Of a stretch of DNA of 64,000 bases, positions 3,398-58,345 are shown one piece after another. This DNA is from Octopus vulgaris (taxonomy: Eukaryota). The notes below the pieces were generated by a model. That model saw nothing but the letters and a program-made list of their open reading frames with translations, had not been told where the DNA came from and did not search any database. Position numbers and translations under genes: made by a program. The DNA lies in NCBI GenBank assembly GCA_951406725.2, contig OX597829.1, positions 35,588,001-35,652,000 on the forward strand, given 5' to 3'. Numbering within the stretch: the first letter of the stretch is position 1; each line of letters opens with the position of its first letter.

Positions 3398-3439
3398 ATA
3401 AACCTGATGATTGCGTAACGCATGAAAGTACTAGTTTAT
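3398..3439 (+). ncRNA. Type-I minimal hammerhead ribozyme
   Basis: ATAAAC-CTGATGA-T TGCG TAA CGCA T-GAAA-GTAC-TA-GTTTAT: 6-bp stem I, intact core, stem II, palindromic stem III (AGTACT). Confidence 0.85.
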
Positions 3440-3783
3440 TTCAATATTGTAAAATTGTAAATAATAAAACGTGAAAATCAGTCTAAATTGGAATTTCATT
3501 GACTATATATATACATGTATATATATATATATATATATATATATATATATAGTCAATGAAATTCCAACTTAGACTGTTTAACACCAAGTGGTTTAGCACA
3601 TAAAAAACCAGGGAGACAATACAAATTTATACATAAATATAAGAGAGTTACCGCTACCGCTAAGTGGTTAACTCTAGTGCTAAAAAGCGCTCCTTATTCT
3701 GGTATAGCCACCGAAGTTGTTTCCACCAAGAAATAACATTACCTTCAACGTAAGGAAAGTGAAATACAACGAACAGGTAGATT

Positions 3784-3861
3784 AATGCCGAACAATTGTT
3801 TCTTTATTAATATAATATGCAATTATACTCACATATTTATCTATAAATCATCAGCGGCATT
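3784..3861 (-). ncRNA. Type-I hammerhead ribozyme with long AT-rich stem II
   Basis: Minus strand: AATGCCG-CTGATGA-TTTAT..(35 nt)..ATAAA-GAAA-CAATTG-TT-CGGCATT. 7-bp stem I, palindromic stem III, GUU site. Confidence 0.8.
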
Positions 3862-4014
3862 TGTCTTCGATACAATTTATTAGACCCTCACAAGCGTCAA
3901 ATACCCATGTGGTCCAATCGATTGCATACATAGTTGTGATTCAGATTCCCCGCCAAAAGCATGGTAAGACTTATATATATATATATGTATATATATATAT
4001 ATATACACATGTAT

Positions 4015-4140
4015 ATAATTTCGGGTTCAGTCCCACTGCGTGGCACCTTGCACAAGTGTCTTCGACTATGGCCTTGCGTCAACCAGAGCTTTGTGAGTGA
4101 ATTTGGTAGATTGAAGCTGAAAGAAGCCCGTCGAATATTT
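4015..4140 (+). mobile_element. Partial tRNA-derived SINE (family A)
   Basis: GGGTTCAGTCCCACTGCGTGGCACCTTG..GTGAGTGAATTTGGTAG matches the full copy at 43049-43456. Confidence 0.8.
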
Positions 4141-4319
4141 ATTGTATATATGTATATATATATATGTGCGTGTATGTATGTGTTTATATATATGTGGATA
4201 TATATATATATATATGTGTGTGTGTGTGTGTGTGTGTGTGTGTGTGTGTGTGTTTGTGTGTGTATGTGTGTGTGCGTGTGTGTGTGTTTGTGTGTGAGTA
4301 TTTATATATATATACTGCA

Positions 4320-5210
4320 GATAGAAAATGCAAGTCTTGAAAGGGGATAAAATGCAACTGAACGAGGGAAAATTTGAGCTGATGCATTTTGGAAGAAATT
4401 CCTCACTAAAACAGCCATACTCTCTTCCTCCAGGGGAACCGCTCACAGCCTCTAACAATATCAGAGACCTGGGTGTAATTGTTGATGACGATCTCAGTTG
4501 GAGTGCACACATCAACAAGAATTCGATATAGCTCGTAGGATGAGTTCCTGGATCTTAAGAACTTTCCGGTCCAGAGAACAAGGTGTCATCATACCACTTT
4601 TCTCCTCCTTTGTACGGCCACACCTCGAATACTGCTGCCCACTGTGGTCTCCCTATACAAGACAAAATATCTCGAGGATTGAATCACCCCAGAGGGCACT
4701 CACTAAACGAATTGAAGGCATGGCTGCTCTCGATTATTGGGATCGCCTTAAAGCCTTGAAACTCTACTCTCTCCAGCGTCGCCGTGAGCGGTACATCATT
4801 TGTACGATGTGGAGAATATACCGCCAACTTTGCCCAAACGACCTGAACATTAGCTTCAAGGTTCATCCAAGACTGGGACCACGGGCCATACGTCCCCTGC
4901 CCAATTCAAAATCACAGCATACATGTACACTGCAACATAATTTCTTTTCCTCAACAGGAATATTTAATATTGTCCCGAAAGTGATCAAAGAGGAAAAGGA
5001 TCCCATCAACTTTAAACGGAGTCTGGATAGATTCCTTCAAGGAATACCAGATAAGCCACCCATAATTGGATACAACTCACTACTTGAATGGACCATAAAC
5101 AAAACTTGACTTAAACAGGATTCAAATAATCCTATCAGGTGGTGCTATTAAGTTAGACATGGCCTGGACCAATCTTTGGTCGAAACATATCTAAGTTTAT
5201 CTAAGTTTAT
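4320..5210 (+). mobile_element. 5'-truncated CR1-clade LINE (RT C-terminus and 3' UTR)
   Basis: MQLNEGKFELMHFG..IRDLGVIVDDDLSWSAHI, then after a frameshift VRPHLEYCCPLWSP..IESPQRALTKRI..YWDRLKALKLYSLQRRRER. 3' stem-loop GACC..GGTCGAAAC and (ATCTAAGTTT)2 tail. Confidence 0.9.
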
Positions 5211-54830: not shown

Positions 54831-55194
54831 TATATATATATATATATATATATAACATATATATATATTTATATATATATATATATATATATATATATAA
54901 CACATATATATATATATATGCATATATACATACCTATACGTACATGCTTGCATATTTACGTATATACATATGCATATGTGGGCACATGCCGTCATAAGAC
55001 GTAAACAACGAAAAATACGAAGTACGAGGACATAGAATATGAACTTCTTTTGCGAACAACGAAAGAAACAAATGGAAAACAAGAGAAACAACACAAAGAA
55101 CGACCCTTCATCAGTTGTCGGCTGTTTTACTAATGCGTACACATATACACACATATGTATGCCTATATAGCTGTCTAAGAGAAAATTAAAGGAA

Positions 55195-55563
55195 GCACTC
55201 CGTCGGTTACGACGACGAGGGTTCCGGTTGATCCGATCAACGGAACAGCCTGCTCGTGAAATTAACGTGTAAGTGGCTGAGCACTCCACGGACAACGATA
55301 GTTCTCGGGGATATTCAGCGTGACACAGAGAGTGACAAGGCCAGCCCTTTGAAATACAGGTACAACAGAAACAGGAAGTGAGAGTGAGAGAAAGTTGTGG
55401 TGAAAGAGTACAGCAGGGATCACCACCATCCCCTGCCGGAGCCTCGCGGAGCTTTTAGGTGTTTTCGCTCAATAAACACTCACAACGCCCGGTCTGGGAA
55501 TCGAAACCGCGATCCTACGACCGCGAATCCGCTGCCCTAACCACTGGGCCATTGCGCCTCCAC
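55195..55563 (-). mobile_element. Full tRNA(Arg)-like SINE family B copy
   Basis: Head GTGGAGGCGCAATGGCCCAGTGGTTAGGGCAGCGGATTCGCGG..GGTTTCGATTCCC on the minus strand. Confidence 0.9.
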
Positions 55564-55919
55564 TTAAGAGAAAATAATGGGGTGAATATAATAATCTTTA
55601 AATTATTCAGTATTATAGATTCATCTCAGACGAGTCCACTATTCGGTTTCGCACATGAATTGAGCCATAACCTATGACGGCGCTCGTCAGCGATGTACGG
55701 AAAATATGGCGACATCTTTCCGCTACTGGTGGTCAGGAAGTGAGAGAATTTCGAAGAAGAACTCTTTGGGAGTTATACTCCTTGCACAGAGTGTGCCACA
55801 CCCAAATTTATATGTAAATATAAACCTGCATACACACACACACACACACACACACACACACACACACACACACACACACACACACATATATATATATATA
55901 TATATATATTATAGAAGGA

Positions 55920-55968
55920 GCTTCTACAGGACTAGAACTGTTTCATTCAAAAGAAATCATCAGGAAGC
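55920..55968 (-). ncRNA. Type-I hammerhead ribozyme, complete three-way junction
   Basis: GCTTC-CTGATGA-T TTC TTTT GAA T-GAAA-CAG TTCTAGTC CTG-TA-GAAGC; GUA site. Confidence 0.88.
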
Positions 55969-58251
55969 ATTGAGTACCTTATTTACTGTGGTTAACCCCG
56001 ACTCAACCCGGGACCTATATATATATATATATATATATATATATATATATATATATATATCCATGCTACCCACTATTTTCCTCTTTAATTTGCTAATGTT
56101 ATACCTAATTACTATTCAAATACTAGAGTCGCTTTAAGTCATAGATTAATCAAAATGATCAAGGTAGGGCTTCCGCTCTTGGTTAAGTAGTCGCTAAAAT
56201 CTCTGTAATGTTCATGGGACAAGAGAAGACTAATTGTTCTAGAAATGTAGTAGCATGTTTATATTTTTTGTTTAGGCCGTTAAAATTAAGAGCCCACTGG
56301 GTGTACTCAGTTACACTGCCATCTAGCAAACAGATGAGTACTTAGACACGTACATTGCGATATTTGCAGTGTTTAATTGACTTGAGTTGCGCTGGTAAAC
56401 GCATATGATAAATACATACACATACACGCGCACAAACATAAATATGTATTTATACATATTTATATATGTAAGTATATATATATATATATATATATATATA
56501 TATATATATATATATGTATATCATAGACACACACACACGCAATCATATTTTTGCATACTATATATGTGCGATTGTATATTTATATATGTATATATATATA
56601 TATGTATATATATATATATATGTATGTGTGTATATATATATATATATATATATATATATATATATATATATATATATATATATATTATATATATATACAT
56701 ATATATATATATACATATATAAATATACAATCGCACATATATATATATGCGTGTGTGTTTGTGTGGGTGTGTATATCTATATATGTATATATATGTATGT
56801 ATAAATATACACACACAGACACACACACGCACATCCATCCATCCATCCATACATACATGCATACATGCATACATACATACATACATACATACATACATAC
56901 ATACATACATACATACATACATACATATATACATACGCACTCACGCACACACTCACACAAACACACACTCACTTATAAAATTTCAATCCTTGGACATGGC
57001 TAGTTTCAATTCTAAGTTTTGTACTTTATCTGTTTATAATAACCTCTGCAATCATGTTTTGAACGCTTCGCACAACGTATCAATGTTATATTTATGCTCA
57101 CACACACATCATATATATATATATATATATATATATATATATATATATATATATAAGCATACATTAATGTGTGCTTGTATGAGTAAAGTAGTGTAGCTGT
57201 TCGTTTTGATATATTGCCGTATCCACACACACGCACGCACGCACGCACGCACGCACGCACGCACAAACACTTATACATGCATGTGTGTTTTCTTTTTTGA
57301 TATATTTGTTAGTGTATGCTTGAATAAGTGAACCATTGCAATGATTACAATATCACGTGTGATTAAGTAAACAATGATTCTCTTCAAATCGTTCTCTAAA
57401 CACACCAATGATTTCGAATTTATATATTTTTCAATTTTTCAAACGCTCTTTAACCAGAAACATTACTGAATCATGGAAATAAATAATCCTCATATATTTC
57501 CATTTCTGACAATATTATAGTCACAAATATTCTGGTAACAATGACATGTTTTATAGTCAGTCAAATGTTTATTATTTATTGGCTCGTTAGTTTGACATAG
57601 AGTGCGAATCTAGTAGAAAGACATAACTATTCGATACTAGATACAAAATGTCGAAGAACTCGATAAACAAAGTATTTCTGGAGAACGGTTATTTATATTC
57701 CATATAGAATATTTCCATGAAATAAAATTTCTCTATTTGAAATGTATTTTTGTCTCAGCAATTTCATTCTTTAAATTACAATTTTCTTCTTCGTTTAATG
57801 TTTTATTTATTCAAACTATGGAAAAGAAGACATGATTTATCATCCGAGCTAAATCTCACCATCAATAATGAGATACTTGGAGTTGTTGGGCAGACAGTCA
57901 CTCGTTGTTGATGAGACTCAGTGTATCAAAACAGTTACGGGTATCCATTTTTCTATGTCTTACTTTGCGCATTGTCGTTCACCACTTCTGTGTTAATATA
58001 TACAATTTTTTGAAATGGCATGCATCCGTTTTATGTATATGTATGTATGTGCTTGCCTGCGTGCGTATGTATGATACACAGACACACATACACACATATA
58101 TATGTATGTATGTATGTATGTATGTATGTATGTATATGAATATATATGTATATATGAATATCTATAAATATATGAATATATACATACGTATACATATGGA
58201 TATATATATATATCAATATATAATCAAAATAAGCAACAAGAATATCTTCGG

Positions 58252-58345
58252 TAATTTGGTACGATCGTTTCAGGCTACATCATTTTATTAAACATTGTAA
58301 GCATTACAACAGTTTTAAAATGTTCAGCAATCATCAGCCAATTTA
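58252..58345 (-). ncRNA. Type-I hammerhead ribozyme with ~59-nt rod-like stem II
   Basis: TAAATTGG-CTGATGA-TTGCT..CATTTTA AAAC..TTGTAA TGC TTACAA..GTTT..TAAAATG..AGCCT-GAAA-CGATCG-TA-CCAAATTA. Confidence 0.82.

Follow-up and report, generated by a model that had tools for sequence, protein, structure and literature searches.

Hammerhead ribozyme families in a 64-kb stretch of the Octopus vulgaris genome: probable ends of Penelope-like elements and two candidate non-coding relatives

The stretch considered here, hereafter the window, comprises 64,000 nucleotides (nt) of the Octopus vulgaris genome (assembly GCA_951406725.2, contig OX597829.1, positions 35,588,001 to 35,652,000 of the forward strand); the genome measures 2.8 Gb, and the window is rich in microsatellites, which dominate the output of a general repeat search of it. 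A preliminary description of this DNA had pointed to at least seven type I hammerhead ribozyme folds in short units bounded by (TA)n, interpreted as a diverse set of non-autonomous elements mobilised by the reverse transcriptase (RT) and GIY-YIG endonuclease of Penelope-like elements (PLEs). The type I layout is present at all seven named sites, which belong to six dispersed families, A to F (Table 1), family D holding the two sites named 46821 (minus strand) and 47288 (plus strand). First-look candidates number 722 for A, 1103 for B, 318 for C, 987 for D, 646 for E and 2264 for F, totals that are rough since 40 candidates were scored per search. On sequence grounds, A, D, E and F (four of the six families and five of the seven sites) are 5′-truncated or inverted 3′ ends of PLEs bearing open reading frames (ORFs), and the non-autonomous character ascribed to the whole set probably holds for B, C and related families elsewhere but not for these four. 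The interpretation favoured here, and judged probably correct, is that four families are clipped ORF-bearing PLEs and two are non-coding elements likely copied by the same enzymes.

The folds are confirmed as predicted hammerheads and as real repeats. A strict descriptor matched the window twice, whereas 100 block dinucleotide shuffles averaged 0.01 and none of them reached two, and a descriptor allowing one core mismatch gave five against 0.3 (0/40 shuffles reached five). Three of the seven named sites (A, B and the plus-strand site of D) pass the descriptors; for C, the minus-strand site of D, E and F, acceptance relied on inspection by eye and on intact cores in other genomic copies, and the window copies carry lesions relative to their families in C (C3U and a stem I change), in the plus-strand site of D (C3U) and in its minus-strand site (a stem III change). 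The family-majority cores CUGANGA, GAAA and UH are intact, with stems I to III in type I order, and stem III is palindromic and short, perfect in A, B, C and F, with a G.U pair in D, and longer and imperfect in E. The pair 10.1/11.1 is G-C in C and D, U-A throughout family B, and U.U in A (26/35 matches), F (17/18) and E (33/64, with 28 of the remainder being reverse-strand matches). Lunse et al. reportedly described PLE hammerhead variants, and those with U.U and at A6 may be among the ones covered there. As had been stated, the stems differ in sequence between families, the pair within D apart, although the scanner itself required pairing. Single-strand folding lent weak support (z < −2 in three of eight stretches), an RF00163 search of the genome gave six matches from 73 candidates scored, and the proposed check against Rfam returned no hammerhead among the 150 listed of the 351 window matches, those listed being microsatellite matches to microRNA models.

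Table 1. Features of the window discussed in the text (positions count from the first letter of the window; a dot marks features without a single strand)
Feature	Positions	Strand	Remarks
Family A, 5′-truncated PLE copy	1339..3503	+	Decayed RT end, GIY-YIG, 3′ untranslated region (UTR), hammerhead pseudo-long terminal repeat (pLTR), near 3′ end
Insertion resembling a miniature inverted-repeat transposable element (MITE)	2236..2664	.	Terminal inverted repeats; interrupts A endonuclease; gap in alignment to locus L148
Hammerhead A	3398..3439	+	Core 3404-3410; palindromic stem III; U.U at 10.1/11.1; predicted cut after 3433
(TA)n, then 25-nt inverted copy of A 3′ end	3504..3576	.	Converging arms
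Family B, partial copy of ~493-nt head-to-tail unit	3576..3973	-	Hammerhead 3784-3861; core 3854; predicted cut after 3791
Family C mirror pair, ~547-nt head-to-tail unit	44432..45065	.	44432-44790 minus, 44787-45065 plus
Hammerhead C	44627-44691	-	Core 44684; C3U here; predicted cut after 44633; the plus arm breaks off within stem II
Family G (different PLE), RT remnant without endonuclease	45115..46227	-	Terminates in a decayed pLTR of its own and (TA)n
Family D mirror pair	46758..47420	.	Inverted pLTR arm 46758-46913 minus joined to 46912-47420 plus; cores 46900 minus and 47294 plus
Family G 3′ end	48061..48190	+	Variant core A6U, then (TA)n; absent from the preliminary description
Family E two-armed insertion	55902..56017	.	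110 nt in (TA)n; hammerhead arm and inverted tail arm
E hammerhead arm	55902-55968	-	Core 55963; predicted cut after 55925
E inverted tail arm	55969-56017	.	
Family F, 5′-truncated 3′ end	58219..58399	-	Core 58337; predicted cut after 58260; flanked by TA at each end

The ORF remnant of family A spans 1339-2740, and the window copy is flanked on both sides by TA runs. This remnant, named earlier as that at 1335, had been suggested as belonging to a partner family acting in trans; it is instead the body of A's own element, since L148 is colinear with window positions 1560-2235, 2665-2896 and 3125-3551, so that remnant and ribozyme (3398) belong to one element, which the MITE-like insertion splits. 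A homologue of the 2014-2229 frame (P0007, 71% identical) carries PF01541 together with the cysteines that lie within the GIY-YIG core, and the linker, CX2-5CxxC in Neptune/Nematis, is decayed in both the window and L148. Judged by its motifs and cysteines, A appears to be Neptune/Nematis-like; its frame gave no alignment to F. The best named homologues of the protein of one element come from Argonauta and two Octopus species.

In family D, the plus arm of the mirror pair retains the last ~40 endonuclease codons, the 3′ UTR and the pLTR, and the window sequence was matched by blastn and tblastn to the element in L178, a full-length D in which an inverted pLTR and a pLTR are followed by an RT/GIY-YIG frame that holds two stops and, 2.82 kb further along, by another pLTR, pLTRs on both sides of the ORF thus being seen for D. 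Matches to PLE proteins are present in 5/11 D loci and 2/13 F loci. In L165, a GIY-YIG frame (PF01541, E 1.6e-5, above the Pfam cut-off) lies ~1.1 kb upstream of the F ribozyme, and it is through this endonuclease frame only that F is linked to PLEs; L166, a candidate for a pLTR-body-pLTR copy of F, was rejected as a local tandem duplication. A PLE copy related to D (L087) has a hammerhead 1.7 kb downstream, and the RF00163 search also gave another hammerhead family with a long stem II (noted with L087, L002, L003 and L006).

Family E, which like D is young (copies 97–99% identical), is represented in the window by a unit of only 110 nt. This unit has 30 full-length matches in the genome, TA-bounded on both sides, with 29 different junctions among the 30 copies, and its left half is E's own tail in inverted orientation; a separate 5′ partner was sought and rejected, the search having returned that same inverted tail. 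Read from its sequence, the 110-nt unit is an aborted two-armed insertion and not a mini-element. The layout recurs with arms that range between 30 nt and 2.4 kb, and some E units lack a complete ribozyme (L054). In 22/27 E loci truncation falls at a hotspot on the 5′ edge of stem I, at a 4-nt palindrome, and this may be due either to the ribozyme fold or to microhomology. In longer E copies, a microsatellite-like (TA/TG) 3′ UTR of ~2.3 kb separates the ribozyme from the end of the upstream frame (L208), and all five stretches upstream of the E ORF end carry endonuclease or RT-endonuclease frames, 31–32% identical to D. The link of PLE-type minimal hammerheads to PLE RT and GIY-YIG frames is upheld for A, D, E and F, all of which reach such frames in longer copies. 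The description of the sites as non-coding units ending at TA held only in part, as A is the end of an ORF remnant, D retains endonuclease codons, and B does not lie at (TA)n in the window. Whole E insertions also form palindromes of 2–5 kb, as seen in L208 (191-5037) and L209, and the retrotransposition of E may itself spread TA/TG microsatellite-like repeats through its 3′ UTR.

Families B and C were followed in 10 and 9 top-ranked copies, respectively, with ~0.6 kb of upstream sequence each. The sequence upstream of the B ribozyme is B's own tail, with a period of 487–497 nt in 5/10 loci, and the head-to-tail junction recurs in five loci on three chromosomes with unrelated flanks; in the window, B abuts an inverted piece of A, not (TA)n. 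The period of C is 547 in L191, and the same junction is present in L192, L195 and the window (four loci). The longest frames are of 71 amino acids in B and 61 in C, the GC content is 33–34%, and circular predicted folds gave z −4.7 for B and −3.1 for C (40 pair-block shuffles). PLE peptide matches were found in 0/10 B and 0/9 C loci, within these short flanks of top-ranked copies, and the longest direct run across these 19 short loci is of ~1.4 units, although arrays may occur elsewhere. Like those of the autonomous families, the insertions show inverted arms, end at TA and have a near and a far 3′ end. Because they are ORF-less head-to-tail units with PLE insertion anatomy, B and C are likely non-autonomous, and their sequences point to PLE enzymes as the likely agents of their copying and insertion. 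For the other remnants put forward as partner families, at 45120 and 51180, no connection to B or C came to light, and the former has its own pLTR family. Assembled contigs of four sequencing runs cover parts of B without the head-to-tail joint, contigs being unable to show strand, ends or level.

A short 3′ motif that lies ~250 nt downstream of the core in family B recurs in families with unrelated ribozymes (L055, L065, L120 and fragments), the L120 family having a period of 501 nt, and among the loci examined this motif lies beside no PLE frame. The motif shared with B sits ~45–60 nt before the TA junction in several families that are otherwise unrelated (L055, L065, L080, L120, L128, L008, L009 and L211). 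It is quite possible, though as yet a tentative reading, that a clan of ORF-less hammerhead elements of ~500 nt exists in the octopus (B, C, L120 and others), whose ribozymes are unrelated but which have a 3′ recognition motif in common, and that PLE protein inserts them by paired priming on the two strands of a (TA)n break, each of two RNA start sites giving one cDNA.

The anatomy of the insertions is similar across families. They sit in (TA)n, often as two arms joined back to back, and end preferentially at a near or a far 3′ position, the two lying roughly 36 nt (A), 92 nt (B), 94 nt (C), 147 nt (D), 68 nt (E) and 91 nt (F) apart (overall 36–150). Among 51 two-armed loci whose choice did not depend on a tail, 50 have the near end on one arm and the far end on the other: 28/28 in E (25 plus L208, L209 and L054), 9/10 in A, 4/4 in B, 6/6 in D and 3/3 in F. 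These counts leave out duplicate loci (L037, L118, L119, L125, L155), single-armed loci, the A loci L135 (converging) and L159 (complex), the C loci except that of the window, and the D loci L179 and L181 and the F loci L169 and L171, in which the second arm is unresolved. In addition, 5′ truncation, an inverted 5′ copy and a one-ended tail are all seen in the PLE families A, D, E and F. The pairing of near and far ends suggests, at the level of sequence, paired priming on both strands. In such a scheme, the PLE protein would cut both strands of a (TA)n run, one complementary DNA (cDNA) would begin at the near site of the RNA and another at the far site, and both would stop early and then join, often at short palindromes. 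Most copies would thus be dead fragments, in which only the pLTR ribozyme and the tail are conserved, and B and C would be internally deleted PLE relatives of retrozyme type that keep the ribozyme, the start sites and the tail. Predicted cleavage would probably occur as dimers, through the palindromic stem III.

A filtered scan of 60 evenly spaced 10-kb stretches (600 kb) gave 21 folds against 0–3 in ten shuffles, so the excess over shuffled controls holds beyond the window. The same filter gave four folds in the window where ~2.2 were expected from this census, which indicates that the window is not unusually rich in folds. A (TA)4+ run lies ≤250 nt downstream of 16/21 sampled folds, as opposed to 21% of random positions, in agreement with the proposed insertion at (TA)n, in a genome with 2.3 TA runs per kb. 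Extrapolated roughly from the 600 kb, these figures suggest ~90,000 intact-looking hammerhead folds genome-wide (~33 per Mb over background), most of them probably PLE debris.

Several other explanations were weighed. That all seven sites are dedicated non-autonomous ribozyme mini-elements, moving as short TA-bounded units, would agree with the hundreds to thousands of first-look candidates per unit, with the 30 full-length TA-bounded matches to the E unit and with the truncation hotspot at stem I; it is nevertheless very improbable, as 29 of the 30 E-unit junctions differ, longer copies of A, D, E and F reach PLE frames, and an E unit without a complete ribozyme exists. A narrower alternative, in which B and C too are no more than autonomous PLE ends, or single deletions that DNA-level duplication has spread, and were never retrotransposed as non-coding units, draws on the few loci, their short flanks and the fact that multimeric arrays are not seen there. 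It appears improbable in view of the same head-to-tail junction amid unrelated flanks in five B loci and four C loci, of their TA ends, inverted arms and two 3′ ends, and of the absence of PLE protein matches in the 19 loci, together with the periodicity of the L120 family. The least probable explanation, to which hardly any weight is given, is that the folds are chance matches in AT-rich repeats or that the mirror pairs are assembly artefacts: the modest number of single-strand folds reaching z < −2 and the density of TA runs would be in its favour, but the shuffle controls and the intact cores found family-wide contradict the former, and the mirror arms differ by 3–10% and end at different family-specific positions. 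More credible, although still unlikely, is that both arms stem from one cDNA that folded back, or from a single intermediate resolved by the endonuclease, instead of from two primings. Many mirror junctions pivot on short palindromes, Craig et al. (10.1101/2021.04.23.441226) ascribe the tail to endonuclease-mediated resolution, and the converging duplications at 3483-3572 and 46656-46742 suggest that fold-back occurs here; however, most 110-nt E units have two arms with no sequence in common (for example, reference positions 131-197 and 216-265), and such non-overlapping arms argue against fold-back of one cDNA.

The favoured interpretation, of clipped PLEs and of non-coding elements copied by paired priming, also has a number of observations against it. 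The D and E frames went unrecognised by Pfam (which also returned nothing relevant in the window remnants), D, E and F are Hydra-like by motifs that are not all present in each family, and the clades were assigned from motifs, without a tree. Within ≤3 kb upstream, a PLE frame accompanies only 2/21 sampled folds, one of them probably by coincidence, and most families in the genome are therefore not tied to a PLE frame. Covariation of the stems, proposed earlier as a check, was not above shuffled alignments in family A (172/500 shuffles reach the score; 18/30 loci aligned), which is as expected of dead copies; the stems of the aligned loci are 95% paired, and the sole double change sits at a CpG. 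The share of two-armed loci is inflated, and one arm is fixed by selection, since the copy searches put loci with two query copies on top and the E query favoured near-end arms. Two direct complete ribozymes were present in none of the B or C loci fetched, no autonomous partner of B or C was found in the loci examined, for which only ~0.6 kb upstream of 19 copies was covered, and ORF-bearing versions of the B and C pLTRs may exist. Finally, in the Poseidon element PAc of Anolis the start sites were the same on both strands in vitro (Frangieh et al. 2024, PMC11167929), in contrast with the near and far ends paired in 50/51 loci here.

The same work reports that the PAc protein cuts and extends both strands in vitro, with starts at two sites bounding the tail, and that insertion in vitro did not need ribozyme cleavage; the octopus insertions are like PAc in their AT-rich target and in what would be a pair of RT start sites on either side of the tail, with cutting and extension of both target strands. 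According to Craig et al., all families of the Hydra clade insert in (TA)n and carry hammerheads, and the same paper describes copies in inverted orientation, tails on one side, the targeting of TA and head-to-tail PLEs that are non-autonomous. Of the Hydra motifs, read here from translations, DKT is found in D and CxCX5C in E, D, E and F have no GIY-YIG core cysteines, and TA ends are present in all three. These families differ from Hydra-clade PLEs in the ~2.3-kb, largely TA/TG microsatellite-like 3′ UTR of E, in CxCX5C not being seen in D and in the U.U at 10.1/11.1 of E and F. The minimal hammerheads of metazoan PLEs have been described as thousands of heterogeneous single motifs from truncated PLEs, with opposite-strand pairs 100–700 bp apart, cleaving weakly and as dimers (Cervera and de la Pena 2014, PMC4209133), dimers of hammerheads being treated also in the review PMC6765202. 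The octopus hammerheads resemble them in type (I), in the palindromic stem III, in comprising many families unrelated in sequence, in being mostly single truncated-PLE motifs and in their opposite-strand pairs at such distances, and depart from them in the pair G10.1-C11.1, highly conserved in that report, which is U.U in A, E and F and U-A in B, in the A6U core of most G copies, and in the long stem II inserts of several families.

Animal (non-LTR) retrozymes were defined by Cervera and de la Pena (2020), and a preprint by Li, Clavereau and Pollet (2026, 10.64898/2026.07.22.740005) argues from co-occurrence and trees that retrozymes derive from PLE pLTRs, a study that leaves the mechanism open. 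Families B and C are similar to non-LTR retrozymes in being ORF-less, of 33–34% GC and head-to-tail, with one type I hammerhead, a stable predicted fold and a link to PLEs; the differences are their length (~490–550 nt versus ~300), their minimal, not canonical, ribozyme, and their scattered occurrence, not in arrays but as partial tandems that carry inverted arms and a pair of 3′ ends. They are also comparable to the non-autonomous Chlamys PLEs exemplified by MRC1 (Craig et al. 2021), which are non-coding, with pLTRs, head-to-tail organisation and microsatellite targets, although the latter are algal, mostly without hammerheads, and matched at their 3′ ends to autonomous partners, a match not obtained for B or C. 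An octopus repeat annotation (PMC13282606) lists PLE families, and its main text does not mention ribozymes or hammerheads; a literature search, at the level of titles and listings and covering few subscription papers, gave no paper on octopus hammerheads or on twin priming by PLEs. The supplements of Craig et al., of Cervera and de la Pena 2014 and of the octopus annotation may already contain the families found here. Hammerheads in PLEs, the targeting of TA, tails, arms in inverted orientation and retrozymes derived from PLEs have all been published, and the novelty lies in members of these groups in a new host.

Other repeats accompany these families. The window remnant of family G is 73% identical to L094, whose frames continue, by eye, into a GIY-YIG-like region; A6U is present in 13/19 G copies and (TA)n ≤200 nt in 19/19, and pieces of this high-copy family also lie at 45130-45241 and 43799-43856, both on the minus strand. 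At 52716-52790 (plus), a decayed hammerhead of a family J, 78% identical to an intact copy in L041, ends at (TA)n. Family I (L053, L055, L071, L075-L077; 20 blast matches in 600 kb) has no (TA)n ≤200 nt in any of eight copies, so hammerhead families do not all end beside TA. The interval 51180-51400 (plus) is a short frame remnant with a likeness, by eye only, to a Hydra-type endonuclease end, and gave no blastp match at 1e-3 to D, E or F. Short inverted duplications converging around (TA)n, found at 3483-3572, at 46656-46742 and in the flanks of L008 and L009, where an E unit lies in the middle, possibly originate from fold-back priming of a nicked TA run. Judging by eye, 60400-60940 (plus) looks like a decayed Helitron-type helicase frame, 49690-50640 and 250-880 (both plus) look like decayed mariner-type transposase remnants, and 4320-5110 (plus), beside (TA)n, looks like the 3′ end of a reverse transcriptase of a long interspersed nuclear element.

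For annotation, these data mean that short TA-bounded ribozyme units are not to be called new elements without a check of their junctions, because most hammerhead folds in the genome are probably PLE debris. The U.U 10.1/11.1 and A6U variants can be assayed cheaply. How PLEs form their tails and inverted pLTRs, and whether PLE enzymes move animal retrozymes, are posed as questions in the papers cited, and the young families D and E, the near-intact D frame, the pairing of near and far ends and the B and C units provide concrete substrates for both. If the clan of ORF-less elements is real, it would constitute direct genomic evidence that PLE enzymes retrotranspose retrozyme-type RNAs, and the tail and the inverted pLTR of PLEs would be explained by one mechanism.

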